Below the pieces are notes generated by a model. It was not told where the DNA came from, searched no databases, and was given only the letters and a program-made list of their open reading frames with translations. Shown one piece after another: positions 20,956-49,094 of a stretch of DNA of 49,094 nt. Position numbers and translations under genes: made by a program. Source of the stretch: Thermoplasmata archaeon (lineage in GTDB: Archaea; Thermoplasmatota; Thermoplasmata; Lutacidiplasmatales; UBA184); assembly GCA_049800095.1 (NCBI GenBank), contig JBARJD010000139.1, positions 1 through 49,094 of the forward strand, written 5' to 3'. Numbering within the stretch: position 1 is the first letter of the stretch; each line of letters starts with the position of its first letter.

Positions 20956-22773
20956 ATGGTAGACCCCTGGGTCCTGACCAACGATGTCATCGGCAACGTT
21001 GGGGGGTTGGTCCTTACCCCTCTGCTCTGGATTGGACTCTTTGCGTGGGCCTGGAGCCGGCCGGCCGATGCGCGGGCGAGCGGCTTCGGCCGAATGGCCT
21101 TCTGGTTGCTGCTCCCGGGCGCCCTCCTGAGTTCGTTGGCCGATGTCCCCTTCCTCCCGTGGGCCGGGGACGTGCTGGCCATCAACCTCGGCGGGGCGCT
21201 CATTCCGATTGCCCTGACCCTCGTACTCCTCCGCCGCGAACTGGGGACCCCCGGTTGGAGACTCGCCGGCATCGTCCTGCTGATCGTCGCGGCGGAGACC
21301 GCGACTCAATTCGCGATCGTGCTCGTTTCGACTTCGTTCCTTTCGGGACTCCTCGTGCTGGCCGCCGCCGGTGGTACGGTGGCGAGTGCCGCCGTGGCCC
21401 TGCCCCTTTGGACGACACGCCCTGCGGCCATGCGAGCGGTGACGTTCGTCGCGCTCGTTTCGGTTGCGATTTCGTTCACCTTCTTCAGTTCGCAAGCGAT
21501 CCCCGGCGTGGGGATCGTGTCGACGTTTCCGTTCTACCTGGTGGGTCCCATCGTGGTGGGCCTCGCCGCCGCGTGGGTAGCTACGGCGGTATGGGGCGTC
21601 GCGGCCTACCGTGGCCTCGGGATTGGATACGGCACCGGTACGCTGGGCACACTGATCGGGGCGGATGTCCTTCGCCAGCCACCGCTCTACACCGGGGCCG
21701 GCGGCGAGTTACTTGCCATCGGGGGAGCCGGCGTCCAGGACCTGGTCTACTTCTCGGGGCTGCTGGCCCTCGGAACGGGTCTACTGTTCGTCTTGATCCG
21801 CTCCCGCGGAGCTCCCTCGGACTCTTCCGCCTCCGCGCCGCTCTCGCCGGAGCTCTCGCTGCGGGCGGCCGCAGAACGTTTGGCGAAGGGCGATCCCGCG
21901 GGAGCCATCCGAGATTCGGTCATCGCCAGCCAAGGCGCCACCGATCGAGTGCGGTCGATCTTCCAGTTGCCCTCGCCGGTGCAACCGGCCGCCGCTTGGG
22001 AGGGTCTCCCGGTCGCGCCCTATGTGGCGAACGACTACCGAAATTTCATCGCGTGCAAAGACGAGCCGGCCCCTACTCCACGGGAAGCAATCCGGAACCT
22101 CGCGATGGCGACCCAGTTCGTCCGTCTCGGACGAGATTTGACCCGTATTCGCTTCGCCGCCCCCGGCCGCAGGGGTTGGGCCGCCGTAGTGGACCTGGCC
22201 GTCGTGACCGCTCCCGCGCTGGTCCTGTGGAGCGTCCTCGCGTGGACGCAGCCCGGCGGACTCTACGGGATCCTCGACGGGCTCCCGTTCAATCTCGCGG
22301 TCTTCGGCTACGTCGGATACGCGGTCCTCTACTACGTCGTCTGCGACGCGCTGTTCGGCGTCACCATCGGAAAGTCCCTCTTCCATCTGACCGTGACCGA
22401 CCGAACGTATGCCCGGCCCACGCTGCTGCAATCCTTCGTCCGGGAAGCCCCCAAGGCGGTCCCCATTTTCGTGATCGGGGAATTCGGAGCGCCGGCGCTG
22501 TTGTTCCTCCTCCTGGCCAGCAGCTCGTCCCTGAGTGCGTTCGGAACCAATCTCACCTTTCTTACTGGGGCCGTGCTGGTCGGAATCGTGCTCGTGACCG
22601 TCATCGCGTCGCTCGCTATCGGGGGCGTGCAGGTGTCCCGCGATTCCGAACGACAGCGCCTGGGAGACCGATGGGCCTCTACGTGGGTCGTGGACCGACG
22701 GGCGGTCACTCCGGCATGGGGAGCGACACGGACGACGTCGGCCGTTCCGCCGGGACCGGCCCCACCAGGCTGA
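20956..22773 (+). CDS. Polytopic membrane protein: DUF1614-like N-terminal half fused to an RDD-like C-terminal domain
   Basis: The N-terminal multi-TM region contains INLGGALIP, a DUF1614-like motif from memory. The C-terminal region RRGWAAVVDLAVV...YYVVCDALFGVTIGKSLFHL resembles RDD-family domains. The 3' end overlaps albA by 68 nt in convergent orientation. Confidence 0.5.
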   Translation: MVDPWVLTNDVIGNVGGLVLTPLLWIGLFAWAWSRPADARASGFGRMAFWLLLPGALLSSLADVPFLPWAGDVLAINLGGALIPIALTLVLLRRELGTPGWRLAGIVLLIVAAETATQFAIVLVSTSFLSGLLVLAAAGGTVASAAVALPLWTTRPAAMRAVTFVALVSVAISFTFFSSQAIPGVGIVSTFPFYLVGPIVVGLAAAWVATAVWGVAAYRGLGIGYGTGTLGTLIGADVLRQPPLYTGAGGELLAIGGAGVQDLVYFSGLLALGTGLLFVLIRSRGAPSDSSASAPLSPELSLRAAAERLAKGDPAGAIRDSVIASQGATDRVRSIFQLPSPVQPAAAWEGLPVAPYVANDYRNFIACKDEPAPTPREAIRNLAMATQFVRLGRDLTRIRFAAPGRRGWAAVVDLAVVTAPALVLWSVLAWTQPGGLYGILDGLPFNLAVFGYVGYAVLYYVVCDALFGVTIGKSLFHLTVTDRTYARPTLLQSFVREAPKAVPIFVIGEFGAPALLFLLLASSSSLSAFGTNLTFLTGAVLVGIVLVTVIASLAIGGVQVSRDSERQRLGDRWASTWVVDRRAVTPAWGATRTTSAVPPGPAPPG

Positions 22774-23203: not shown

Positions 23204-23288
23204 GCAGGGGTGGCCCAGCTTGGTCAAAGGCGCCAGGTTGAGGTCCTGGTCTCGTAGGAGTTCGTGAGTTCAAATCTCACCCCCTGCA
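23204..23288 (+). tRNA. tRNA-Leu(GAG), class II with long variable arm, no encoded CCA
   Basis: Acceptor GCAGGGG/CCCCTGC. D-arm GCCC-AGCTTGGTCAA-AGGC. Anticodon stem CCAGG/CCTGG with loop TT-GAG-GT. 14-nt variable arm. T-arm GTGAG-TTCAAAT-CTCAC. Discriminator A. Confidence 0.9.
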
Positions 23289-23309: not shown

Positions 23310-24278
23310 GTGGTTGACGAAGAGCTCCGATGCCCCTCCTGCCACGAGGGGGTCTCGGCGGCCGACACGCGCTGTCCCTACTGCGGGGCCGCACTCGATG
23401 CGCTGCCCGAGCGTCCTCCACCCTCCGCGGTCCGCGTGGACCCCCCGGCTGGAGCTCGGACCGCCCTGACGGCGAGAGAGCCCGCCGTCGCGCCGGACCT
23501 GGCCCGACGGTTCTCGAAGCTCCAGCAGTGGGCGGAGATGGTCGATCCGTTGGGACTCACGCTCCCCGTGCTCCCCCGCTGGGCGGAGGAGGCCGCGCGT
23601 CGTACGTCCGACCACGACCGGTGGGCCGACGTGCTGACCGGCGTCGAGCGGCTCGCCCAGAACCAGATCCTGGCGGCCCTCGAGGAGTGGCAGCGGGACG
23701 TCAAGACCCGGCTGACCCGCCTCGAGGCCTACGCGGTGGACAGCCGGCTCGAGCGAGACCAGATGGACGACGCGCTCCACTTCGCCAAGACGGGAGACAT
23801 CAGCAGGGCGTTGACCGCGTACCAGCAGGTCGACCGGGTGATCACGCTCAAGGAACGCCACCTCGACACGGCGCGCGAGGATCTCGAATCGGTGGTCTCC
23901 CTCCTCCGCGACATGGCGGGCGTCGGGTTAGCGGTGCCCAGCGATCCCAACGAACTGGGCCAGGAGCTGGAACGGGAGCTGCGGAGTGGTCGGCTCGCCT
24001 CGTTAAAGCAGCAGCTCCGCGTCCTCCGCACGCAGGCCATGGAAGCGGTCCAGCGGGAGCTGCCCGGATTCGTCTCCCGGTATGGGGACTTCCTGCAGGA
24101 GCAGCGGATGCAAGGAACTCCGGTCGAGACCGAGATCGCCGAGCTCGGTCGGGGCGCTCGGCTCTTGGCACAAGGGCGCAGCGAGGAGGCGCTCCATCGA
24201 ATGCGCCGACTGCTCCAGATGCACGGCTCTTCGACGTTCCGGCCCTCGCGCACCGCCGCGGTCCGCGGAGCGCCGTAA
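23310..24278 (+). CDS. Hypothetical protein: N-terminal zinc ribbon plus long coiled-coil/helical region
   Basis: CPSC-x12-CPYCG lies at the N-terminus. The remaining 280 aa or so are heptad-like and R/E/L/Q-rich. It has a GTG start 22 nt after tRNA-Leu. No family was recognised. Confidence 0.5.
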   Translation: MVDEELRCPSCHEGVSAADTRCPYCGAALDALPERPPPSAVRVDPPAGARTALTAREPAVAPDLARRFSKLQQWAEMVDPLGLTLPVLPRWAEEAARRTSDHDRWADVLTGVERLAQNQILAALEEWQRDVKTRLTRLEAYAVDSRLERDQMDDALHFAKTGDISRALTAYQQVDRVITLKERHLDTAREDLESVVSLLRDMAGVGLAVPSDPNELGQELERELRSGRLASLKQQLRVLRTQAMEAVQRELPGFVSRYGDFLQEQRMQGTPVETEIAELGRGARLLAQGRSEEALHRMRRLLQMHGSSTFRPSRTAAVRGAP

Positions 24279-28450: not shown

Positions 28451-29101
28451 ATGCTCAAGGAGTGCGAACAGCACGGCTACTTCCGGGGCGATACTTGCCC
28501 CGTCTGTGGTCAATCCGGTCGGTTCCTGATGGACGACCGCGAACTCGACCATCTGGGCCGGGTAGTCACCGGCGTCCTTCGCCACTTCCCCGAGAAATAC
28601 GGCCTCCAGATGGATCCCCACGGATGGATCGCGCTGCCCCAGCTGGTCCGGAACATCTCCAACCAGCACCGGGGGTACCGCTGGCTCCGGGTCCACCACA
28701 TCGTCGCAATCGCGGAGACCGACGCCAAGGGGCGTTACGAAGTCAAGGACGACCGCATCCGGGCCACCTACGGGCACACCTTGGATGTCGACCTCGACCT
28801 TCCAACGGACCACATTCCGGAACAGCTGTTCTTCCCGGTCACCCCCGAGGAGGCCACCATCGTGCTCGAGGTCGGGCTGAAGCCCTCCGACCGGAAGAAG
28901 GTCCATCTTTCGAAGACGGCCGCGGACGCGCGCTCGGCCGGTGCCGTCCGCACGCCGAACCCGGTCCTCCTTGCGGTGGACACCAAGAAGGCCCAGGACA
29001 GTGGCGTTGTGATCAAACGCGCAGGAAAGACCGTCTTCCTGGTCGATTCGGTGCCGGCGGAGTTCCTCTCGCGACTGCCCGACGTGCCGGTGGCCGAGTA
29101 G
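28451..29101 (+). CDS. kptA: RNA 2'-phosphotransferase (KptA/Tpt1) with an N-terminal zinc ribbon
   Basis: LGRVVTGVLRHFPEKYGL..D..GW, RYEV....IRATYGHT and HLS motifs, preceded by C.QHGYFRGDTCPVCG. Confidence 0.85.
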   Translation: MLKECEQHGYFRGDTCPVCGQSGRFLMDDRELDHLGRVVTGVLRHFPEKYGLQMDPHGWIALPQLVRNISNQHRGYRWLRVHHIVAIAETDAKGRYEVKDDRIRATYGHTLDVDLDLPTDHIPEQLFFPVTPEEATIVLEVGLKPSDRKKVHLSKTAADARSAGAVRTPNPVLLAVDTKKAQDSGVVIKRAGKTVFLVDSVPAEFLSRLPDVPVAE

Positions 29102-29114: not shown

Positions 29115-29732
29115 TTATCCGAGCACGACGTTCGTCTCGTACGTCGTCGCGACGTAGATCTTCTCGGTGAGGTTCGAGCCGAGTGGGTAGGGATTCTCGA
29201 AGACGAAGTAGTACTCGTCCGTGTAGGGCGCCGCGAAGACGATGCGGGCCGAGCTCACGTTGGTGTACGGCGTCACGGCGGCTTGCGCGCTCTGGTGGGA
29301 GTAGAATGCCGCGAACTCGGTCGAGTTGTAGATGGCCACCACGACATTCGCGGCGACCGGGGTCTCGACGCTGAAGTTACCGGTGATGTAGTCCTCCCCC
29401 GTGATGTTCCCGGCGAGGAGGCCCCACCCGCCGGGCGGGACCGTCAGAGTCCAGGCGCCGGTGAGGGAATCCGCATACGTGGTGGGGCCAGCGATCTCGG
29501 CCGCGATGATCGCGTATCCAATTGCGCCGACGATGCCCACCACGACCAGGATGCGGAGCCATCGGAGCATGACCGCACGACGATGGACGGGTCGGCTGCG
29601 GGCCTCCACCGCCCGCTGGGCCGGTGTTCCATATTCCTTGCCGCATGTGGGGCAGATCTTCGCGTCCGGCGGCACGGCGTCGCCGCAGAACGTGCAGCTG
29701 CCCCACTGGGTTTCCAGTACAGAGGTCGCCAT
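29115..29732 (-). CDS. Hypothetical membrane-anchored protein: zinc ribbon, one TM helix, and an ectodomain rich in N-X-S/T sequons
   Basis: CTFCG-x9-CPTCG, then the TM helix LRILVVVGIVGAIGYAIIAAEIA. The beta-rich domain of about 150 aa carries NIT, NFS, NST, NVS and NLT. The start is set at ATG 29732. Confidence 0.5.
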   Translation of the reverse strand: MATSVLETQWGSCTFCGDAVPPDAKICPTCGKEYGTPAQRAVEARSRPVHRRAVMLRWLRILVVVGIVGAIGYAIIAAEIAGPTTYADSLTGAWTLTVPPGGWGLLAGNITGEDYITGNFSVETPVAANVVVAIYNSTEFAAFYSHQSAQAAVTPYTNVSSARIVFAAPYTDEYYFVFENPYPLGSNLTEKIYVATTYETNVVLG

Positions 29733-29838
29733 CGTGGGCCTCGCAGGACCGGGACATCCCCCTTTTTCCCCACTTCGTACGACCAGGAAGACGCCACGGA
29801 GGCCTCGTCCACATGACAACGTTTCCCGCGGAGGCCGG

Positions 29839-29847
29839 TTATAAATA
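29839..29847 (+). promoter_or_regulatory. Strong TATA box (TTATAAATA) upstream of the Ehr-like operon
   Basis: This is the best TATA match in the window and lies 117 nt before ATG 29956. A GGAG Shine-Dalgarno at 29943-29946 sits 9 nt before the ATG. Confidence 0.5.
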
Positions 29848-29955
29848 GACGGGGCACTAACGAACTGCTGGCGGAGGCGTCCGCCTGCCGGGAGTCCCCC
29901 GGTAAACTGCCCTCAGGGCCAATGACGCCTGCTTCCCCGAAAGGAGTAGGCGAGC

Positions 29956-30915
29956 ATGACCCTCGAAACACAGGCCGTAAACGGTCTACAGCTTGCCACA
30001 GTACTACTTCTGTCCCCGTTGATTGCCGGGATCGCCGCTCGCGGCAAGGCGTGGACGGAATCTCGTAGAGGCCCCTCAATCCTCCAACCCTACTTCGACC
30101 TGGCCAAGTACCTTCGAAAGGAGACGCTCGTCCCGACCGGCGCCTCGCGCATCTTCATCGTCGCGCCCTTCGTATCGTTTGGAGCCTACTTCCTGATCTC
30201 GATCGTCATACCGATACTCACCCCGTACCCGCTCCCCTTCGCCCCGACCGTCGACTTCCTGGGTGGAGGGCTACTCTTCGGTTTGGCGGGCGTCGTGACC
30301 CTCCTCGCTGCCCTGGATTCTGGAAGTAACTACAGTGCCCTTGGGGCGAGTCGGACGGTGTCGTTCGCCGCCCTCGCGGAACCGACTCTGATCGTCGTAT
30401 TCTTCGCCGTGGCCGTGATCAGCGGTACCAATAGTCCCTACGTCGCGAACAACGTCGTGAGCGCCTCGCTAGTGGCCTACCTCTCACCGACCCATCTTCT
30501 CGCGACGGCGGCCTTCTTCCTTCTGCTGCTCTTCGAGACCGGAAAATTGCCGGTCGAGAGCGCCGGCCTCATGGAGTTCGGCATGCTCGAGGAGGGCCGC
30601 ATCTACGAGCACTCGGGCCGGCTACTCGGACTGTTCCGCTGGAACGGGTGGATGAAACAGTTCCTGCTCTACGCGTTGTTCCTCAACGTGTTTGCTGTCC
30701 CCTGGGGAATGGTGGCGGCCCCGACGCTCGTCGGAGCGGTCTACAACCTTGGGCTCCTCCTCGGGAAGCTTCTCGTTCTCGTAGGGGTCCTCGTGCTCGT
30801 CGAGGCCACCCTCGCTAAGGTCCGCCTGTTCAAGATCCGGGATTTCCTTGCCCTGTCCTTCGCGTTCGCAGTGTTGTCCGTCTTTCTGTTCGCCGTCCTG
30901 GGGGGGGTGCCTTAG
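29956..30915 (+). CDS. Ehr/Hyf-like complex membrane subunit, NuoH/HyfC/HycD family
   Basis: SRRGPSILQPYFDLAKYLRKE, LDSGSNYSALGASR and LPVE....EF.MLEEGRIYEHSG align with HyfC/NuoH signatures. The 319 aa compare with 315 aa in E. coli HyfC. Confidence 0.8.
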   Translation: MTLETQAVNGLQLATVLLLSPLIAGIAARGKAWTESRRGPSILQPYFDLAKYLRKETLVPTGASRIFIVAPFVSFGAYFLISIVIPILTPYPLPFAPTVDFLGGGLLFGLAGVVTLLAALDSGSNYSALGASRTVSFAALAEPTLIVVFFAVAVISGTNSPYVANNVVSASLVAYLSPTHLLATAAFFLLLLFETGKLPVESAGLMEFGMLEEGRIYEHSGRLLGLFRWNGWMKQFLLYALFLNVFAVPWGMVAAPTLVGAVYNLGLLLGKLLVLVGVLVLVEATLAKVRLFKIRDFLALSFAFAVLSVFLFAVLGGVP

Positions 30916-31563
30916 ATGGACCCCACCACCGAGGTCGTCCCATTGCTCGGCGTGGGCATCTTGCTCACGGCGCTCTATCTCCAGTCGGAATCGTTCGTCG
31001 ACCCGCTTGTCTGGGGAGTGGCACTGCAATCCGGGTTGATTGCCCTGCTCCTGGGGTGGCTTGCCTGGGCCGATCATAACGTCGACTTCGCCATCCTCGC
31101 CGTGTTGGCCGTCGGGATCCGGGTCTTCCTAATTCCCTACGTGCTGCGCCGGCAGATCCGCGCCTTCCGTTGGCGGGCGAGAGAGCTGCGCGCTTCGCAG
31201 CGTGTTACCGGCCACGTATTGGCCGCGGTGGCGTTAGCCATCATCGCTTGGTTCGTGTTCCAACAGACCCTCGCGCCGGCGTTCCCCGAGCTCGGAGGAG
31301 CCCTGCCCTTCGTTCTCCTGATCCAGGGGCTCCTGATGCTCGCAACACGGGCGAACACGATCGTGCAGGTGGTCGGCTATCTTGAGGAGGAGAACGCCAT
31401 CGTGTTCGCCGGCGCCCTCTTCGCTCGCGGCTTCCCGCTCTTCATCGAGGTCGTGATCTTCCTAGATGTCCTGGGCGTGGTCCTTGTCGGTGTGATTCTT
31501 TCGATCCAGCGGGACGTGACCGGTACCCCCGAGGAGAAGGTGCTGGAGGAGCTCACCGGATGA
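30916..31563 (+). CDS. Ehr/Hyf-like complex membrane subunit, HyfE family
   Basis: 215 aa, against 216 aa for HyfE. The C-terminal half IVQVVGYLEEENAIVFAGAL...FIEVVIFLDVLGVV matches the HyfE pattern GY.L.EN...L.L......IG...D. Confidence 0.7.
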   Translation: MDPTTEVVPLLGVGILLTALYLQSESFVDPLVWGVALQSGLIALLLGWLAWADHNVDFAILAVLAVGIRVFLIPYVLRRQIRAFRWRARELRASQRVTGHVLAAVALAIIAWFVFQQTLAPAFPELGGALPFVLLIQGLLMLATRANTIVQVVGYLEEENAIVFAGALFARGFPLFIEVVIFLDVLGVVLVGVILSIQRDVTGTPEEKVLEELTG

Positions 31564-32996
31564 TATTCACCGACCCTCGAGTGTGGATCTTCTTCGTCCT
31601 GGCCTCTCCCATGGCCGGGGCAATCCTCGCCCTGGTTCCATATCGCTCCGTGAGCCAGGCCGCGGCCCGCACTGCGTCGGTGGCGACCTTCGTCGCCGCC
31701 ACGGCACTCCTCGTGTTGGAGGCGCGAGGGGAGTGGGGGCCGGTCTTCGGCGTAGACCCGCTGAGCGACGTGTTCCTGTTTACCGTCGCGGCGATCTATG
31801 CCACGTCGGTGTGGTACTCGAGCGGCTATCTCCGATCGGTCAACAGCGCATACCTCTCGCCCCAGATCTACTACGCGTTGATGAGCGCTTTCGCCGTCGC
31901 GATGCTGTTCAGCCTACTGGTTACCGACCTCGGCCTGATGTGGATCGGAATCGAAGCGACGACGGTCGCGAGCGCGTTGCTCATCGTGCTCGAACGGAAA
32001 CCGGCGAGCGTCGAAGCCGCCTGGCGGTACACGCTCATCGCTTCGGCGGGGTTGACGATCGCCCTCTTCGCGCTGCTTCTCCTCTACGAGGCGACCGGCA
32101 CCCTGGACGCCGTCGCCCTCGCGGCGAACCACCCCGTCGCGACCCTCCTGGTACAGATGGCCGTCGCTCTCGCACTCGTAGGGTACGGCACCAAGATCGG
32201 TCTCTTTCCGATGCATACGTGGTTGCCGGACGCGCACTCGGAGGCGCCCTCTCCCGTATCCGCTCTTTTTTCGGGGGTGCTGCTTCCCACGGCGCTGTAC
32301 GCGTTCCTACGCGTCTACCAGGTGCTCCCGAGTCCGGCCCCCGCGGACCTCTCGAATCTCGTCCTCGTGGTTGGTCTGTTGACCGCCCTCGTGGCCGCCT
32401 TCCTGCTTCAGCGACAACGGTCGTTCAAACGACTCCTCGCCTATTCGAGCATGGAGGTCATGGGCCTCGCCATTGTCGGAGTGGCGCTCGGCGGGTACGC
32501 CTTGTACGGGGCCCTCGTTCTCTTGGTGGCGCACGCCTTCGCCAAGTCGGCGGCGTTCTATTGCGCGGGGAACGTGCTGCGGGGGACCGGTACGACACGG
32601 ATCGACTCCGTGCGGGATCTTCGGTCGCGGATGCCCTGGACGAGCGCCGCCTGGGTCCTCGCCGCGCCCGCGGCGACCGGTGCCCCCCCGTTCGGGACCT
32701 TTGTCGGGGAACTTCTCATCGTAGTCGGTGCAGTGGCGGTCGGCGCCGATTGGGTCGCCATCGTTGTCGTCGTGGCAATACTGGTGGCCTTCCTCGGCGT
32801 CAACGCGCAGATTGGCGGCATGGTGTTCGGGAAAGGGGATCGGGCCCCGGGCCCCATCACGCCCGGAGCTGAATCCGGCGTATCGTTCGCGTTCCTCAAC
32901 GTCGCCATGGCACTCGCCATCGGGGTCGTCAGCCTGCCCTATCTCTCCACCGCCATCCGAGCGGCCGCGCTTCTCCTGGGAGGGAGAATACCATGA
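31560..32996 (+). CDS. Ehr/Hyf-like complex antiporter-like subunit (HyfD/HyfF, NuoM/N family)
   Basis: 478 aa and about 14 TM helices. HTWLPDAHSEAPSPVSALFSGVLL is the hallmark of Mrp/NuoLMN-type proton-conducting subunits. Joined to hyfE-like by an ATGA overlap. Confidence 0.8.
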   Translation: MIFTDPRVWIFFVLASPMAGAILALVPYRSVSQAAARTASVATFVAATALLVLEARGEWGPVFGVDPLSDVFLFTVAAIYATSVWYSSGYLRSVNSAYLSPQIYYALMSAFAVAMLFSLLVTDLGLMWIGIEATTVASALLIVLERKPASVEAAWRYTLIASAGLTIALFALLLLYEATGTLDAVALAANHPVATLLVQMAVALALVGYGTKIGLFPMHTWLPDAHSEAPSPVSALFSGVLLPTALYAFLRVYQVLPSPAPADLSNLVLVVGLLTALVAAFLLQRQRSFKRLLAYSSMEVMGLAIVGVALGGYALYGALVLLVAHAFAKSAAFYCAGNVLRGTGTTRIDSVRDLRSRMPWTSAAWVLAAPAATGAPPFGTFVGELLIVVGAVAVGADWVAIVVVVAILVAFLGVNAQIGGMVFGKGDRAPGPITPGAESGVSFAFLNVAMALAIGVVSLPYLSTAIRAAALLLGGRIP

Positions 32997-34309
32997 CGGC
33001 GCTCGCCGCCGTGGGGACTACCGGGGAAAGCGGTGCGGGAATCCGCCTCCCGGCATACGCCGCCCCGGACGGCTCGTTCGTTCTCTGGAATGACTTGACG
33101 ACCGGGCGCTCTCGCCTCGTGGGATCGGCCTCGGAGCCGTTCCCTCCCGACTTGACGGCGGCTTGGGCGGTCCCGCGGGACGGCCCGAGACGCCGCTCCG
33201 TGGCTCCGGCCGAGGAGGTGGATGGGTACGGAGTGTTCACCTTCCCGTACGGCCCCATCACGATGGGGGTCGCGGAGTCGGGTCGGTTCGACGTTCGTAC
33301 TTACGGTGAACGCATCCTAGACGTAGCTCCGGTCGCCGGGTACAAGTCTCGACGCATCCTTCCCTCCTTGATCGGCCTATCGGTGGAAGATGCGGCGCTC
33401 CGCGTGGAGCGCGTGTCGGGCAACTTTTCAGCCGCGCACACCGCGGCGTTCCTCGCGGCGGCCGAAAGTGCGATCGCTCGTCCCATTGACGTAGAAGAAG
33501 CCTGGGTTCGGGCCGTCGCCCAGGAACTGCAACGGATCTACAACCACGTGCATGTGATCGCTCGGGTCGCCGAGGCCGCTTCTCAGAACGTCGGCCTCGC
33601 CCAGGCCCACGCCTTCGCGGAGGAGGTCCTGCGGCAGATCGGAGCGACCTTCGGCCATCGATGGCTCTTCGGAGCGTTCCTCCCCGGCGGACCCCGCGCG
33701 CATCTCGACACGGACGATCGCGCGCGTCTTGCCCGAACTCTCGACCGGAAGTCCATGGAGTTCGAGCAGCTTTGGACCTTGTTCCAGGATTCTCGGACGT
33801 TCGTTGACCGGATTCAGACGACGTGTCCCGTATCTCGCGACCAAGCCGTTCACTGGGGCGGCGTGGGTCCCACCCTCCGCGCCACCGGGGTACCGTGGGA
33901 CGACCGACTCCGGGCGCCGGTCGTGCCCTACACGGACCTCTTCCTCCCGCTCGCGACGGAGTCCGAAGGCGATGCGCTCGCCCGCGTGCTCGTCCGTGCC
34001 CAGGAAGTCCGGAGCAGCTACCTCCTGCTGGAGCAGCTCCTCGAGCGTTGGCCAAAATCCCCCGTCGATCCCGTTCCGCCGGCCGCGACCGTCGGCCCGA
34101 ATCGGGGTCTCGGTCGGGTCGAGGGTCCCAGTGGGGACATCGTCTACGACGTCTCGGTCGTAGCGGGTCGCGTCACGGCCGTCGGTCTCCGTAGCGCGAG
34201 TGACGCCAATTGGCCCCTGTTCGCTATCGGGATGCGGGACCAGGTCTTCACGGATTTCCACTTCGCGTGGGAGAGCTTCGGCCTCCAATTCGCCGAAACG
34301 GATCGGTGA
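32993..34309 (+). CDS. NiFe-hydrogenase large subunit / NuoD homologue lacking all metal-ligating cysteines
   Basis: It aligns to HycE/NuoD: GP.T.G..E.G.F...Y.GE.IL, GYKSR, ERVSGNFSAAH and a C-terminal FAETDR. The four NiFe cysteine positions are Ser, Phe, Gln and Glu. ATGA overlap upstream and GTGA overlap downstream. Confidence 0.8.
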   Translation: MTALAAVGTTGESGAGIRLPAYAAPDGSFVLWNDLTTGRSRLVGSASEPFPPDLTAAWAVPRDGPRRRSVAPAEEVDGYGVFTFPYGPITMGVAESGRFDVRTYGERILDVAPVAGYKSRRILPSLIGLSVEDAALRVERVSGNFSAAHTAAFLAAAESAIARPIDVEEAWVRAVAQELQRIYNHVHVIARVAEAASQNVGLAQAHAFAEEVLRQIGATFGHRWLFGAFLPGGPRAHLDTDDRARLARTLDRKSMEFEQLWTLFQDSRTFVDRIQTTCPVSRDQAVHWGGVGPTLRATGVPWDDRLRAPVVPYTDLFLPLATESEGDALARVLVRAQEVRSSYLLLEQLLERWPKSPVDPVPPAATVGPNRGLGRVEGPSGDIVYDVSVVAGRVTAVGLRSASDANWPLFAIGMRDQVFTDFHFAWESFGLQFAETDR

Positions 34310-35061
34310 AGCACGTGCCGAGCTGGTTGGAACAGTCATGGAAACGGGGCATTCTGACCACCCGTTATCCTCGAATCGCCGCTCAGCCTGGCGAGATTCC
34401 TGACACTGCCTTGCCGCCGATCCCGAACGGCCCCGCGGTCGCACTGGCGACGTCGACTTCCAGCTGCCCGACCGGCGCGATTACGCGCAACGCCGTCGAT
34501 CAAGGAAAGTGTATCCGGTGCGCCCGCTGCCGCGCGCAGGGCTTCGCTTTCGCCGGCCCGCTGGAATCCAGCGTCGCCCGACGCCCGGATCTAGTCTGGC
34601 TCGAAGGAACACCCCATCCGACGGAGGAGGCCGGTTCGCTGGTCGCGCTCGGGCGCTCCGTGCACGTGTTCCTCGTCGACGTCGGGAGTTGCAATGCGTG
34701 TAATCTAGAGGTCCTCGCACTGGCGAACCCGTACTACGATTCGCAACGACTCGGCATCTTCTTCACCAACTCTCCACGCCATGCGGACGTCCTGCTGGTC
34801 GTCGGGGTTCCTACCGCGGAGATGGTGGAGCCGATGCAGCGCGCCTACGCCGCCTTGCCCTCTCCCAAGGCGGTGGTGGCCGTAGGGGTCTGCCCCACGA
34901 GCGGGGGGATCTTCGCGGGGAACCCCGGTCTTCGTTCGTCCCTCGACGAGCTCGTGCCGGTCGACCGGTACGTGCCCGGCTGTCCACCGCACCCCTTGGC
35001 CGTGCTCGATGCCATTCTAACGCTGATGGGACGACATCGGCCGTCCGCAGGAGGTCGCTGA
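34306..35061 (+). CDS. NuoB/HycG-type small subunit fused to an N-terminal single-cluster ferredoxin-like remnant
   Basis: The NuoB/HycG core is DVGSCNACNLE, SPRHADVLLVVG, GVCPTSGG and VPGCPPHP. About 100 aa precede it, containing CPTGAI and CIRCARC. The start is inferred at GTG 34306, overlapping the upstream stop. Confidence 0.75.
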   Translation: MKHVPSWLEQSWKRGILTTRYPRIAAQPGEIPDTALPPIPNGPAVALATSTSSCPTGAITRNAVDQGKCIRCARCRAQGFAFAGPLESSVARRPDLVWLEGTPHPTEEAGSLVALGRSVHVFLVDVGSCNACNLEVLALANPYYDSQRLGIFFTNSPRHADVLLVVGVPTAEMVEPMQRAYAALPSPKAVVAVGVCPTSGGIFAGNPGLRSSLDELVPVDRYVPGCPPHPLAVLDAILTLMGRHRPSAGGR

Positions 35062-35062
35062 G

Positions 35063-37066
35063 ATGGACCCCTTCGGCCTCGTACTCACGTTCGCGATCGC
35101 GTCGTTCTTCGCCGGAGCCGCGCTCGCGTTCCTGGGCCGGCGTGTGGCGTATGCGGCCACGATCGTGGGCGCGACGGGCCTGGTCGTGGTTGCGGTCCGC
35201 GTGATCCTGCTCGGGCCGGTACAGGGTCCGATGTGGACCGGCCCGCTCGGCGAAATGGAATCGTTCGGCCTCGACGGCCTGTCGGCATTCTTCGCGCTGG
35301 CCGCGGGACTCGTCTGGATTTCGACATCGGTCTACTCCCTCTACTACGACGACGGTCCGTCGCCGCTGCTCGCCCTCACCTACGCGGTAACGCTCGGATC
35401 GATCGCCGTGCTGGTGTCGGCGTCGAGCTTCCTACTCTTCCTGATGGGGTGGGAATCGATGACGCTGGCCTCCTTCGGAATGATACTCCAAGCGTCGGGG
35501 AAATCTCCTCGGATCTTCTCGGCCGCGTTCGTCTTCCTTGCCTTCGGCGAGGCGAGCACTCTCTTCGTATTCCTGGCCGTGGCCGGGTACCGGGTTGCGG
35601 CCGGTACCTTCACGATCATGCCCGTCGCAATGGCCGCCCCGCTCGCCACCCTTGTGTTCGTCGTGGGCCTCATCGGGTTCGGTCTCAAGATGGGCGTGGC
35701 CCCGTTCCACATGAGCGAATGGCTTCCGATCGCTCACTCATCGGCGCCTTCGAATGCATCCGCGGTGCTGAGCTCCACGCTGACGTTGGCCGGAGCCTAC
35801 GGCCTCTTCCGCCTCTTGAGCATCCTACCGACGCCGCCGGTCTGGTGGGGGGCGGTCACGCTCTCGATCGGTGCCGTCTCGGCCCTGCTCGGAGCCCTCT
35901 TCGCCTCGGTGAGCGAGCACACGAAAGGGCTCCCGGCGTACAGCACCATCGAAAACAACGGACTCATCCTGGTCGCGGTGGGCGTCGCGCTGGTGGCCCG
36001 GTCCGAGGGACTGATGACCCTCTACGTCTTCGCGCTGTTCGCGGCCTTCTATCAGGCCCTCGCGCATGCGGTGGCCAAGACCGCGCTGTTCCTCAGCGCG
36101 GGATACGTCGAACACTCGACGCACACCTTCGACCTGAACGTGGTCCAGGGACGCGCGAAGAACGCCGCTCGAGGCGCCGTGGCCGGAGCCCTCATCGCCC
36201 CGCTCAGCCTCGCGGCGGCGCCCCCCCTGGCGGGCTTTGTGAGCGAGTGGATGATCCTCGAGGCGCTCTTCCAGTCGTTCCGGTTCACTCCCCCCGCCAT
36301 GCAGTTCGTCGGCTTGCTCGCCGGTGCTGCCGTCGCGCTGGCGGCGGGCCTTGTCCTCGTGGCGATGGTGAAGTACATCGGATTCTCGACCCTGTGGCAG
36401 CCCTCCCGGCCCGGCGCGGCCGACCGACCCGCCGGATTGGGTACCGTCCTCGCGGCGATGGCCGTCGCCATCGCCGGACTGGGAGTCGGCGCGCCGTGGG
36501 TGCTCCGGTTCCTCACTCCCTCGGTGTCGGCGTTCGCCCATGTCGCCGTCACCGCTCCCGTGTCCGGGCTCCTCTCCATCCCGTTCGGCTGGTCGATCGT
36601 CTCGGGCTCGCCGTTCGGGATCCTGTCCCCACCGGCCGTTCCAATCTTCATTGGGGGGGGACTCCTCGTCGCGCTGGGGTACTACGCGCTCGGGGTCCGG
36701 ACACCGGTGCGTCGGATTGCGTCCTGGATGGCCGGGAGTCCGCCCGGCCGAGTTGAGGAGACGTACACGTCGTTCGGTTACAGCACAGGAGTCCGGATCA
36801 TGTTCCGGTCGATCCTGCGCACGCGGGAAGTGCGGGCCCACTCCGGTACATTCACTCGTGCGGCGATGGAGACGCCGGTCGCGTACAACGTCGAACTCGA
36901 GGTACTCGACCCGTTCAAGATCTTTTACGACGAACTGGTCCGGTTCGGAATGGGAGTCTCCACCGCTCTCAAGGAGGGAGTCATGCCGGGTCGCGTGGGG
37001 CGGTATCTCGCGTATCTCCTGGTCGCGACACTCGTCGTCGTCATCTACGTCGCGATCGCGGTCTGA
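35063..37066 (+). CDS. Ehr/Hyf-like complex antiporter-like subunit (HyfB/NuoL family)
   Basis: 667 aa, against 672 aa for HyfB. It is polytopic, contains PFHMSEWLPIAHSSAPSNASAVLS, and has a C-terminal extension typical of the L-type subunit. Confidence 0.8.
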   Translation: MDPFGLVLTFAIASFFAGAALAFLGRRVAYAATIVGATGLVVVAVRVILLGPVQGPMWTGPLGEMESFGLDGLSAFFALAAGLVWISTSVYSLYYDDGPSPLLALTYAVTLGSIAVLVSASSFLLFLMGWESMTLASFGMILQASGKSPRIFSAAFVFLAFGEASTLFVFLAVAGYRVAAGTFTIMPVAMAAPLATLVFVVGLIGFGLKMGVAPFHMSEWLPIAHSSAPSNASAVLSSTLTLAGAYGLFRLLSILPTPPVWWGAVTLSIGAVSALLGALFASVSEHTKGLPAYSTIENNGLILVAVGVALVARSEGLMTLYVFALFAAFYQALAHAVAKTALFLSAGYVEHSTHTFDLNVVQGRAKNAARGAVAGALIAPLSLAAAPPLAGFVSEWMILEALFQSFRFTPPAMQFVGLLAGAAVALAAGLVLVAMVKYIGFSTLWQPSRPGAADRPAGLGTVLAAMAVAIAGLGVGAPWVLRFLTPSVSAFAHVAVTAPVSGLLSIPFGWSIVSGSPFGILSPPAVPIFIGGGLLVALGYYALGVRTPVRRIASWMAGSPPGRVEETYTSFGYSTGVRIMFRSILRTREVRAHSGTFTRAAMETPVAYNVELEVLDPFKIFYDELVRFGMGVSTALKEGVMPGRVGRYLAYLLVATLVVVIYVAIAV

Positions 37067-37103: not shown

Positions 37104-37568
37104 TCAGGGGACGACCGTCACCGGCCGCCCGGACCGGTCGAGGAGGGCGGCGGAGACGGAGCCGAGGAGGGTCCTGGCCGCGCCCCGGAGTCCCCGGGTG
37201 CCGACCACAATCCAGTCCGCCTTGATCTCGTCCGCGGCCGCGAGCAGCACCGTGATAGGAGACCCCCCTCGGCTCCACGCGGTGAGGGTGACCCCCTCCC
37301 GCGTCGCTTCTTCTTGCAGGTCACGGAGGACCTCACCGATCGCGTCCACCTCGGAGGCCTGCTCCTCATCGGTACGGGGTTCCATCACCAACGCAGGAGG
37401 CTGGGCGGCGTGCACCAGCCAGATCGCGGCGCCCCCCCGACGGGCGATTCCGAGAGCGAACTGCACCGCTCGGTACGACGCGTCCGATCCGTCGTATCCC
37501 ACGAGCATCCGGAGGGCCGGTGGGGGCCTCGAATTGGCATGGATCGGAGTGCGCGAGGGGGTGTTCAT
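37104..37568 (-). CDS. Universal stress protein (UspA family)
   Basis: The sequence runs MLVGYDGSDASYRAV.FA...A......L.HA, with the C-terminal ATP-binding pattern VVGTRGLRGAARTLLGSVS. Confidence 0.8.
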   Translation of the reverse strand: MNTPSRTPIHANSRPPPALRMLVGYDGSDASYRAVQFALGIARRGGAAIWLVHAAQPPALVMEPRTDEEQASEVDAIGEVLRDLQEEATREGVTLTAWSRGGSPITVLLAAADEIKADWIVVGTRGLRGAARTLLGSVSAALLDRSGRPVTVVP

Positions 37569-38047
37569 GGCCGACCCTCGTTGGGACGTCGCGGAAGGTA
37601 GCGATCTCCGGCGTTCTCAGTGTCCGCGTCCCCACGGGGAGGGTCCCCGTGCCCGGAGGCCCGTATCATCCCTTCGAGGGCCCGGACCCGCCGAGAAAGC
37701 AACGCGTTGTCCGCGTAGTACTCGTAAGCTTGGAAATTCAGGCGCGCCCGATCCTGAGCGCAAGCAGTGAGGGACTTCGCCAGCTGCTCGAGTCGGCTCC
37801 CCGTCGATACCCCGAGGCCGGCCTCCGGGCTGGAGGCTACGCGCGGGGGTGGGGGAGGAAGGAGCGGGAGCATCGTGAGAAGCCAAACCCACAGCCCCCT
37901 CAATCCCACTTCGTCCAGGTCGAGCCAAGGTCGAATGGCGGCGCGAAGCTCCGGCGGGGGTTCGACGTAGTCGTTCCGGATCCGTTCTGCGCCGCCCGGA
38001 CGTCGGCGGTCGCTCTTCTGGGTGGCCGCTTCCAATTCCCTGGGCAT
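37565..38047 (-). CDS. Hypothetical protein (one hydrophobic segment, proline run, helical C-terminus)
   Basis: 160 aa. Its stop overlaps the usp start (ATGA on the minus strand). No family was recognised. Confidence 0.35.
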   Translation of the reverse strand: MPRELEAATQKSDRRRPGGAERIRNDYVEPPPELRAAIRPWLDLDEVGLRGLWVWLLTMLPLLPPPPPRVASSPEAGLGVSTGSRLEQLAKSLTACAQDRARLNFQAYEYYADNALLSRRVRALEGMIRASGHGDPPRGDADTENAGDRYLPRRPNEGRP

Positions 38048-48153: not shown

Positions 48154-49094
48154 ATGGCTTTCCGCTCGCTGGGGGACTTCCTCACGGACCTCGAATCGCG
48201 AGGCGACCTCATCCGCGTGCGGGACCCGGTGAGCCGGGATCTCGAGATCACCGAGATCACGCAGCGGGTCATCCGAAAGGACGGTCCGGCGTTGCTGTTC
48301 GAGAACGTGACCGGCAGTGCCACGCCGGTCGCCATGAATGTGCTCGGCTCGCCACGCCGTATCGCTCGGGCCCTAGGGGCGGAGTCGCTGGACGCGCCCA
48401 TGGACCGGATCGCCCGGCTCGTTCGATTGCGGCCTCCCGCGGGCGTAATGGGCGCTCTCCAGGACCTGAGTGGCACGCTCCAGACCCTCGACACGCTCCG
48501 ATCCCTCGCTCCCAAGCGGGTGAGCACCGCTCCGTGCCAGGAGGTCGAATCCAACCCAGTGAATCTCGACACGCTGCCGATCTTACGGTGCTGGCCCGGG
48601 GATGGGGGCCGCACGATCACGTTCCCCGTGGTCGTGACGAAAGACCCCGAGACGGGGGAAACCCACACCGGAATCTACCGACTCCAGCAGTATGGAACCG
48701 ACACCCTGGGGATGCACTTCCAGATCCACCGTGTCGGGGCCAACAACTACCGGAAATGGTGTGCCCGCGGAGAGCGTATGCCGGTCGCTGCCGTGATCGG
48801 CGCGGACCCCGCTACACTGTTGGCGGGCCTGGCCCCGGTTCCGGAGGGCATCTCGAACTTCGTCTTCGCCGGTTTCCTCCGCGAGGAACCTTTGGAACTC
48901 GTACCCTGCCGCACCGTGCCACTCGAAGTTCCGGCCCAGGCGGAGATCGTCCTCGAGGGCTACGTGGACCCGGCCGAACGGCACCTCGAGGGGCCGTTCG
49001 GGGATCACACCGGCTACTACTCGGCCGCCGAGCCGTTCCCGGTATTCCACGTCACCCACGTCACGCAGCGCCGCCGCCCGGTCTATCTCGGCAC
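48154..49094 (+). CDS. ubiD: UbiD family (prenylated-FMN dependent) decarboxylase, 3' end outside the window
   Basis: This ORF is not in the ORF track because it has no stop within the window. My translation reads MAFRSLGDFLTDLESRGDLIRVRDPVSRDLEITEI...GPALLFENV...LPILRCWPGDGG..ITFP.V.TKDPETG..H.GIYR...EGPFGDHTGYY, which is typical of UbiD. Confidence 0.85.
   Translation, partial: MAFRSLGDFLTDLESRGDLIRVRDPVSRDLEITEITQRVIRKDGPALLFENVTGSATPVAMNVLGSPRRIARALGAESLDAPMDRIARLVRLRPPAGVMGALQDLSGTLQTLDTLRSLAPKRVSTAPCQEVESNPVNLDTLPILRCWPGDGGRTITFPVVVTKDPETGETHTGIYRLQQYGTDTLGMHFQIHRVGANNYRKWCARGERMPVAAVIGADPATLLAGLAPVPEGISNFVFAGFLREEPLELVPCRTVPLEVPAQAEIVLEGYVDPAERHLEGPFGDHTGYYSAAEPFPVFHVTHVTQRRRPVYLG

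Follow-up and report, generated by a model that had tools for sequence, protein, structure and literature searches.

A hydrogenase-like large subunit without metal ligands in a Thermoplasmata archaeon, a probable component of an Ehr-class membrane complex

What can a hydrogenase-like protein still do once it has lost every ligand of its metal centre? The question is raised by contig JBARJD010000139.1 of a Thermoplasmata archaeon (assembly GCA_049800095.1), of which a stretch of 49,094 nucleotides was analysed, hereafter the window. At 32993-34309 of its + strand it encodes a homologue of the complex I 49-kDa subunit and of the group 4 [NiFe] hydrogenases' large subunit. The original prediction, made from the DNA letters, held that this protein has lost both the NiFe cysteines and the quinone-site tyrosine of complex I and is nevertheless no pseudogene. 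We propose that it is very probably a functional, non-hydrogenase subunit of the energy-converting hydrogenase-related (Ehr) type. With a probability of roughly 0.75, it belongs to a six-subunit, cytoplasm-facing, membrane-bound Ehr-class complex that descends from a group 4 [NiFe] hydrogenase of the Hyf/formate hydrogenlyase (FHL) type and would act as a ferredoxin-fed ion-translocating module. We are much less confident of the redox-pump mechanism, which is argued by analogy, than of the identity of the complex. The loss of ligands is not an isolated oddity but the defining property of Ehr complexes that have already been described, so that a class known since 2005 and 2013 is extended to a new lineage and current understanding is left unchanged. 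The new member is a short form without a NuoC-like domain and with a fused HycF-HycG small subunit, which is found in soil Thermoplasmata and occurs in Nitrososphaerales as well.

Former active site of the large subunit

The gene of the large subunit (EhrL-type) is one uninterrupted frame of 438 codons that runs from ATG to TGA. Its product is matched by Pfam PF00346 (Complex1_49kDa) at 1e-26, over the cut-off; the NCBIfam NuoD models remain far under theirs (113 vs 360 bits), and none of the six operon products attains the cut-off of a curated NCBIfam model. An AlphaFold2 (AF2) model computed from the family alignment (predicted local distance difference test score, pLDDT, 88; predicted template modelling score, pTM, 0.90) retrieves HycE as its top match in a Foldseek search of the PDB (query-normalized score, TMq, 0.79), followed by NuoD and NuoCD chains. 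The N-terminal ~75 residues (32993-33217, +) are specific to the family and are predicted by AF2 to form three beta-strands and a helix. A NuoC/30-kDa domain was considered for the N-terminal ~80 residues and rejected, since a profile comparison with the Hyc, Hyf and Nuo proteins of E. coli, HycE and NuoCD included, found nothing and no Pfam family matched; the longer Foldseek alignments of the model to HycE and NuoCD give a hint of a structural vestige of such a domain.

The columns of the former metal ligands were assigned by phmmer against PDB sequences, by a 40-sequence family profile and by a MAFFT alignment with HycE, HyfG and NuoCD of E. coli MG1655. All three approaches agree that the four NiFe cysteines are gone and that His149 is kept. 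The remnant of the N-terminal L1 motif (RxCGxCxxxH) reads E139-R-V-S142-G143-N-F145-S-A-A-H149 and that of the C-terminal L2 motif (DPCxxCxxR) reads G430-L-Q432-F-A-E435-T-D-R438; their predicted positions on the + strand, 33407-33439 and 34280-34306, are exact, the latter lying directly before the stop, so that the protein has a NuoD-like end and no C-terminal extension. In phmmer, ERVSGNFSAAH is paired with ERMCGICSFSH of MbhL and DRVCGICGFAH of HycE, and DRLDYMS of NDUFS2 falls on the same remnant with its quinone Tyr opposite Gly143. The family profile finds MbhL (6CFW_L) at 4.6e-39 and HycE (7Z0S_E) at 1.8e-34 with the same L1 columns, and at the C-terminus it sets 'esfGlvfaetd' opposite 'gsldpCysCtd' of HycE and '..vfaetdg' opposite '..ldvvfgeidr', the ending of the complex I 49-kDa subunit, which bears out the NuoD-like C-terminus noted earlier. 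In the MAFFT alignment, S142, F145, Q432 and E435 sit opposite C241, C244, C531 and C534 of HycE, G143 opposite Y273 of NuoCD, and S380 opposite the catalytic hydrogenase Arg of EAPRGD. The beta1-beta2 loop (G87-F99, GPITMGVAESGRF; 33251-33289, +) lacks the His of hydrogenases and complex I (T90, A94): A94, which is Pro in the family, stands opposite H224 of NuoCD, and the conserved E95 stands opposite E193 of HycE, the proton-relay Glu. The deviating motifs GPITMG (residues 87-92) and GYKSRRILP (residues 116-124) are as previously read, and the sole cysteine, in TTCPVS, is C278.

The protein has the fold of a group 4 hydrogenase and a small-subunit partner with the proximal [4Fe-4S] ligands, and neither of the cysteine motifs L1 and L2; it has PF00346 and an ending of the NuoD type (..V.GE.DR), and neither of the quinone head-group ligands of NuoD, the RLDY Tyr and the beta1-beta2 His. 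Since the NiFe ligands are absent, it cannot be a [NiFe] hydrogenase, and the expectation that its pocket is neither a hydrogenase site nor a canonical quinone site stands.

Homologues of the large subunit number at least 178, and the best 120 of these are 57-76% identical to it and nearly all 427-443 aa long, with a few shorter partial sequences; where NCBI gives an organism name for these 120, it is always that of a Thermoplasmata metagenome-assembled genome (MAG). A scan of one genome per GTDB species yielded 58 loci, of which 50 lie in MAGs of Thermoplasmata sampled from soil, peat and the like (52-72% identity) and eight, at 40-44% identity, in Nitrososphaerales/Nitrosopolaris, one 'archaeon' bin and one 'bacterium' bin. 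No internal stop occurs in any of 48 near-full-length orthologues, and all 48 close with the same ...F[AS][ED]xD[RGA] end. Ratios of nonsynonymous to synonymous substitution rates (dN/dS, Nei-Gojobori), which are informative for the closest pairs only, as dS saturates across all pairs (GC content at third codon positions, GC3, ~0.8), come to 0.12-0.29 in the large and 0.09-0.28 in the small subunit, with 0.03-0.20 in the subunits of the membrane. All six genes of the operon are under purifying selection. GC3 is 0.78 in the large-subunit gene, in line with the 0.79-0.85 of its neighbours, and the gene is coupled on both sides as foreseen: the preceding frame overlaps its start by ATGA (32993-32996), and a possible GTG start of the small subunit at 34306 overlaps its TGA stop (GTGA), the NCBI start lying three codons later.

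At position 142, at least 90% of the family members have Ala, whereas the window protein has Ser, a few others have Val and P0116 alone has Cys. Phe, Val, Tyr or Leu occupies position 145, position 432 drifts between Val, Leu, Ser, Ala, Trp and Gln, and position 435 is Glu, rarely Asp. His149 and D437 are invariant in Thermoplasmata, and His149 is replaced by Tyr in Nitrososphaerales. Across the 48 orthologues, 130 positions are at least 95% identical. Of these family-invariant residues, 32 are common to HycE and NuoCD, 20 are shared with HycE only (including E95, G143, H149, P379, D382 and N406), nine with NuoCD only, and 69 are family-specific (including K118, H222, W302, E427 and G430). The excess of residues shared with HycE only over those shared with NuoCD only indicates that the scaffold is hydrogenase-derived. 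The C-terminal half-site, as the alignments have it, appears to have converged on, or retained, the NuoD state. The former ligand positions probably serve for packing, apart from one conserved acid, as in NuoD, and do not form a new metal site; a filled-in former metal site fits better than a new catalytic centre at exactly these residues.

Partial retention of the ligands is seen elsewhere among the relatives. P0116, a member of the window's own family, carries ERMCGPFSS, and only the first of the four cysteines is kept, in the pattern C-[FY]-x-D, in the short-form clusters P0124, P0126, P0127, P0134, P0139, P0146, P0148, P0163 and P0212. In those one-cysteine lineages, the single thiol beside the proximal cluster could be functional.

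The six-gene operon and the Ehr class

The large-subunit gene is the fourth of six in a tightly, translationally coupled operon on the + strand, in front of which a TATA-box-like element (TTATAAATA, 29839-29848, +), read from the sequence as a candidate archaeal promoter, lies ~105 nt upstream of the first gene. This first gene (29956-30915, +) encodes a HycD/HyfC/NuoH-like membrane subunit of 319 aa (EhrB-type; Pfam NADHdh 5e-32; phmmer HycD 6e-36, HyfC 2e-32, NuoH 3e-6), which is syntenic in 44 or more loci. It is followed by a HyfE-like membrane subunit of 215 aa (30916-31563, +; EhrC-type), which has no Pfam match and is recognized by phmmer with E. coli HyfE (6e-7) and by the NCBIfam model 'hydrogenase 4 membrane subunit' (5e-10, full length, under the curated cut-off). 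The third gene (31560-32996, +) specifies a HyfF/NuoM/N-like antiporter-like subunit of 478 aa (EhrD-type; Pfam Proton_antipo_M 4e-59; HyfF 3e-60), and the sixth (35063-37066, +) a HyfB/HycC/NuoL-like antiporter-like subunit of 667 aa with a C-terminal extension (EhrA-type; Pfam 7e-31; HyfB 9.5e-56, full length). In the HyfF-like protein, the Glu of transmembrane helix (TM) 5 (E132), the Lys of TM7 (K212) and the Glu of TM12 (E384), the equivalents of E144, K234 and E407 of E. coli NuoM, are 100% conserved in 47 orthologues, and in the HyfB-like protein the same is true of E131, K209, H335, K339 and E395 in 43 orthologues. These charged antiporter residues are invariant, and the ion-translocation machinery therefore looks intact.

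The fifth gene (34306-35061, +, from GTG 34306) encodes the small subunit (EhrS-type) of 251 aa, which appears to be the electron wire of the complex (Pfam Oxidored_q6 2e-26). Residues 109-242 match HycG (1e-35), HyfI and NuoB, and C129xxC132, C196 and C226 of this HycG/NuoB-like domain (109-251) supply all four ligands for the proximal, N2-equivalent [4Fe-4S] cluster. A profile built from residues 1-108 finds E. coli HycF at 7.8e-10 and HyfH at 2e-6; this N-terminal domain keeps K-x-G-x-x-T-x-x-Y-P, the 'CP' cysteine (C54) and CxxCxxC (C69, C72, C75). In 2x[4Fe-4S] ferredoxins, the 'CP' Cys of the first motif and the CxxCxxC of the second ligate one cluster; the pattern thus identifies the domain as a HycF/NuoI remnant that is left with one cluster and has become fused to its HycG-like neighbour. 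The eight cysteines of the two sets are all present in 54 of 54 orthologues, among them the ~42%-identical Nitrososphaerales proteins. No twin-arginine signal peptide is found at the N-terminus, and in the AF2 model (pLDDT 84.6) the C-terminal domain matches HycG, MbhJ and NDUFS7. The NCBI entry of the small subunit (P0409, 'NADH:ubiquinone oxidoreductase') has 248 aa and starts at 34315.

The order of the six genes is the same in essentially every related locus, Nitrososphaerales included, and we take it to be a cyclic permutation of the mycobacterial Ehr order. Downstream and convergent to the operon lies a gene for a universal stress protein (Usp; 37104-37568, -; Pfam 3e-27), preceded by an open reading frame (ORF) for 160 aa (37565-38047, -) without a Pfam or NCBIfam match. 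When the flanking ORFs of the 58 loci were clustered, Usp recurred in 29 loci and the 160-aa ORF in 26; Usp stands downstream of the operon in most loci, even in Nitrososphaerales. This conserved convergent unit suggests stress-linked regulation. The other recurrent flanking 'families' were rejected as antisense shadow ORFs of the high-GC operon.

To survey the relatives of the large subunit, 1.84 billion cluster representatives were searched exhaustively with a profile, and the 150 best 50%-identity clusters were analysed. No ligand cysteine at all is present in 98 of them, one to three are present in 17 and all four in 22, the remaining 13 not being covered at all four positions; the first four-cysteine protein appears at rank 35, and Tyr occupies position 143 in 0 of the 150. 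In a rough neighbour-joining (NJ) tree, the window family falls in a clade of 25-32 short (<460 aa) proteins nested in a 122-leaf clade without any four-cysteine member. To judge from these sequences, the cysteine-less state appears to be ancient and widespread. Cysteine-less relatives outnumber true hydrogenases among the 150 clusters, which indicates that the complex I/hydrogenase scaffold has been repurposed many times. Of the 98, 69 are ~500 aa long, and PF00329, the NuoC/30-kDa domain, is found in the long forms, which come from Acidobacteria, Chloroflexi, Alphaproteobacteria, Acidimicrobiia and Thermoplasmatota. Named Ehr proteins were sought among the cluster names of the relatives, and only generic names were encountered.

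The Ehr class reportedly goes back to Coppi 2005 and Marreiros 2013, which later papers cite as its sources. As four such papers describe them, Ehr complexes contain a group 4-related large subunit without the metal-binding cysteines of both motifs (PMC4378227, PMC10284858, PMC6349859, PMC7304191), and ehrABCDLS comprises a NuoL/HyfB-like, a NuoH-like, a HyfE-like and a NuoN/HyfF-like subunit together with a large and a small subunit (PMC7894505, PMC4378227, PMC6688271). The 'Ech-hydrogenase-related' ehrABCDLS of Geobacter sulfurreducens is GSU0739-45 (PMC7894505), and the term 'energy-converting hydrogenase-related complexes' of Marreiros et al. (2013) is cited for Sulfobacillus (PMC4378227), Nitrospira (PMC10284858), Margulisbacteria and others (PMC6349859), the candidate phyla radiation (CPR; PMC7304191), Methylacidiphilum (PMC6688271), Rv0081-87 of M. 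tuberculosis with the Ehr complex Rv0082-Rv0087 (PMC6728331), and a genome of Methanomassiliicoccales, the same class as the window (PMC6147122). All of these papers give the function of Ehr as unknown, and the complexes are reported to be frequent in acidophiles and in stress regulons (PMC4378227, PMC7894505, PMC6688271, PMC6728331). The window operon shares with Ehr the loss of the metal-binding cysteines of both motifs and the ehrABCDLS set of six subunit types, and its assignment to the class rests on these published descriptions of motif loss and gene set. It differs in its short large subunit (438 aa) without a detectable NuoC/30-kDa domain, as opposed to the ~500-aa PF00329-bearing relatives, and in the HycF-derived one-cluster domain of its small subunit.

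Among characterized systems, hydrogenase 4 (HyfA-J) and hydrogenase 3 (FHL, HycB-G; PDB 7Z0S) of E. coli supply the top E. coli match for every subunit, and the proton-relay Glu, the L1 Arg and His and the proximal cluster are all kept. However, the window large subunit has no NiFe Cys, C-terminal extension or HycI site, its catalytic Arg is replaced by Ser380, HyfA/HycB, HyfD, the NuoC-like domain and the FdhF partner are missing, and HycF is halved and fused. With complex I (NuoD/49-kDa/Nqo4, also NdhH and FpoD) it shares PF00346, the cysteine-less state, a NuoB-like partner with an N2-type cluster, an antiporter-like membrane arm and the C-terminus (a hydrophobic residue at Cys3, an acid at Cys4 and the ending -DR); it differs in that the RLDY Tyr is Gly143, the quinone His is Ala/Pro94 and NuoA, J, K, I, C and EFG are lacking. 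The membrane-bound hydrogenase (MBH) of P. furiosus (6CFW) provides the top sequence match among solved structures, MbhL (4.6e-39), but retains four cysteines. MBH and the related MBS/Mbx (6U8Y) are ferredoxin-driven, ion-translocating, complex I-like modules, and MBS shows that the scaffold can switch substrate once the NiFe site is modified; the subunit set of MBS, with its Mrp-type modules, is nevertheless different, and neither MBH nor MBS has a fused HycF-HycG small subunit. A tblastn search of the 49-kb window returned no homologue of hyp/hycI, NuoC, NuoE/F/G, NuoI/J/K/A or HycB.

Possible function and competing explanations

MBH, FHL and complex I serve as the analogy for a mechanism in which a soluble donor of low potential, with reduced ferredoxin as the most plausible one, would deliver electrons to the HycF-like cluster; the proximal cluster would then hand them on to an acceptor in the remodelled pocket, where the large, small and NuoH-like subunits meet. 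Glu95 and the NuoH-like and HyfE-like subunits may pass on the ensuing charge and the change in conformation to the HyfF- and HyfB-like subunits, and these, with the HyfE-like subunit, would carry H+ or Na+ through the membrane; operation in the opposite direction is also conceivable. As to the acceptor, a membrane quinone bound in a non-canonical way is our tentative first guess, in view of the aerobic or facultative, quinone-containing soil archaea concerned; some other acceptor is a comparably tentative option, and it is rather unlikely that there is no turnover at all and that the peripheral arm is a redox-gated or purely structural addition to an antiporter.

A UbiD-family (prenyl-FMN) decarboxylase gene (48154-49092, +) runs off the end of the window. 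Archaeal members of this family function either in the synthesis of quinones or in the modified mevalonate pathway, so that the presence of the gene does not decide whether a quinone acceptor is produced.

Several observations weigh against a ferredoxin-fed redox pump. No donor or acceptor enzyme adjoins the operon in the window or in the 58 related loci. The catalytic hydrogenase Arg is replaced by Ser380 and the quinone-protonating Tyr/His pair of complex I is missing as well. By alignment, only two of the four former ligand positions (142 and 435) appear to be constrained, the other two (145 and 432) drifting among hydrophobic and small residues, and the lining of the cavity is likewise deduced from alignment. 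The NuoC-like domain, which is present in HycE, NuoCD and the long forms (PF00329), is undetected in the window family, and it also occurs in other characterized relatives. The pump model itself is built on analogy, and the open-access papers that use the term Ehr report no activity and demonstrate no substrate.

In an alternative explanation, which we regard as unlikely, the membrane arm would exchange cations and protons as an Mrp-like antiporter and so keep pH or ion levels balanced in acidic soils, with a substrate-free peripheral arm whose Fe-S clusters are structural or serve as a redox sensor that turns transport on under stress. It would agree with the lack of recognizable acceptor-binding residues in the large subunit, with the two drifting positions, with the absence of any recurrent partner oxidoreductase among the clustered flanking ORFs of the 58 loci, with the Usp gene as a conserved neighbour even in Nitrososphaerales, and with the soil and peat origin of the MAGs; a role in pH homeostasis has also been suggested for ehrABCDLS of an acidophile (PMC6688271). 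However, eight Fe-S cysteines that are invariant across ~42%-identical lineages, together with the retained proton-relay Glu, exceed a purely structural need, the peripheral subunits are under purifying selection of like strength, and true Mrp antiporters work without such an arm. A cryptic hydrogenase or other metalloenzyme, in which a non-cysteine metal site formed by residues such as Glu435, His149, Glu95 and Asp437 activates H2 or another small molecule, is very improbable. Glu/Asp435, Asp437, Glu95 and, in Thermoplasmata, His149 are indeed conserved near the old site, and some short-form clusters retain the first cysteine alone (C-F-x-D), but His149 gives way to Tyr in Nitrososphaerales, position 142 is mostly Ala, no hydrogenase without Cys ligation is known, and hyp/hycI genes were not found in the 49-kb window, which is weak evidence. 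Furthermore, Ehr proteins are regarded as unable to interact with H2 (PMC7304191, PMC6728331).

The probability that the gene is a decaying relic of a former hydrogenase is negligible. All catalytic ligands are lost, and one locus (L034, CAVRCS010000001.1, 9135-13002) shows a large-subunit match that begins only at residue 65 and a HyfB-like gene in two overlapping tblastn pieces; these are probably indel assembly errors and not decay, the naming of the contig suggesting long reads. The 48 intact orthologues with the same end from different species-level genomes, the low dN/dS values and the 130 conserved positions refute decay, in keeping with the original prediction, and codon usage like that of the neighbours, the conserved operon order and the apparently ancient, widespread cysteine-less state point in the same direction.

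The reading of the locus as an Ehr-class, ferredoxin-fed module can be taken one step further, although we consider this extension quite improbable. In this view, the short, NuoC-less form would represent a separate, minimal type of respiratory module in aerobic soil archaea, common to soil Thermoplasmata and ammonia-oxidizer-related Nitrososphaerales, with the two-cluster HycF-HycG fusion as its only wire and a remodelled pocket (Glu95, His/Tyr149, His222, Asp421, Glu427 and Glu/Asp435) that supports new chemistry. Such chemistry might be ferredoxin-dependent quinone reduction without the Tyr/His pair, or it might reduce an acceptor other than a quinone; in either case it would be coupled to the pumping of ions and, under stress, be turned on together with the adjacent Usp.

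Annotation, distribution and genomic surroundings

Public databases name members of the large-subunit family 'hypothetical protein' or 'NuoD-related protein' (NCBI) and 'Ni,Fe-hydrogenase III large subunit' or 'formate hydrogenlyase subunit 5' (JGI). Owing to the hydrogenase and formate hydrogenlyase labels, gene-centric surveys could mistakenly attribute a metabolism of H2 or formate to soil Thermoplasmata and Nitrososphaerales. The function of Ehr has been a question since 2005, and the window family, which makes do with six subunits and two clusters, is one of its simplest forms; its high conservation in abundant soil archaea makes it a reasonable structural and biochemical target for work on Ehr function.

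The Nitrososphaerales / Ca. Nitrosopolaris MAGs (L050-L056, including L051 and L053, and L058) carry the six-gene operon with the fused small subunit and the downstream Usp at ~40-44% identity. They come mostly from the JOPF soil series, as do many of the Thermoplasmata MAGs, and one Nitrosopolaris MAG is from MFD. The occurrence of the operon in both groups could reflect ancient sharing or horizontal transfer among acid-soil archaea; no mention of an Ehr-type operon in Nitrososphaerales was found in the literature searched.

The rest of the window carries archaeal housekeeping genes, namely those for S24e, RpoE/Rpb7, archaeal-type GAPDH, AspRS, PurD, fumarase, GDH and ALDH, and also encodes a helicase, ABC transporters and the UbiD protein mentioned above. 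Immediately upstream of the operon lies a gene for a Tpt1/KptA RNA 2'-phosphotransferase (28451-29101, +) with an N-terminal, zinc-ribbon-like CxxC...CxxC extension, which is not conserved beside the operon in other loci. Two zinc-ribbon proteins and one DUF1614-RDD fusion are encoded at 29115-29819 (-), 23310-24278 (+) and 20956-22773 (+), and at least the zinc-ribbon protein of 29115-29819 seems to be anchored in the membrane, with a C-terminal part rich in Ser, Thr and Asn. ARAGORN and Rfam detect a single RNA gene in the window, tRNA-Leu(GAG) at 23204-23288 (+).

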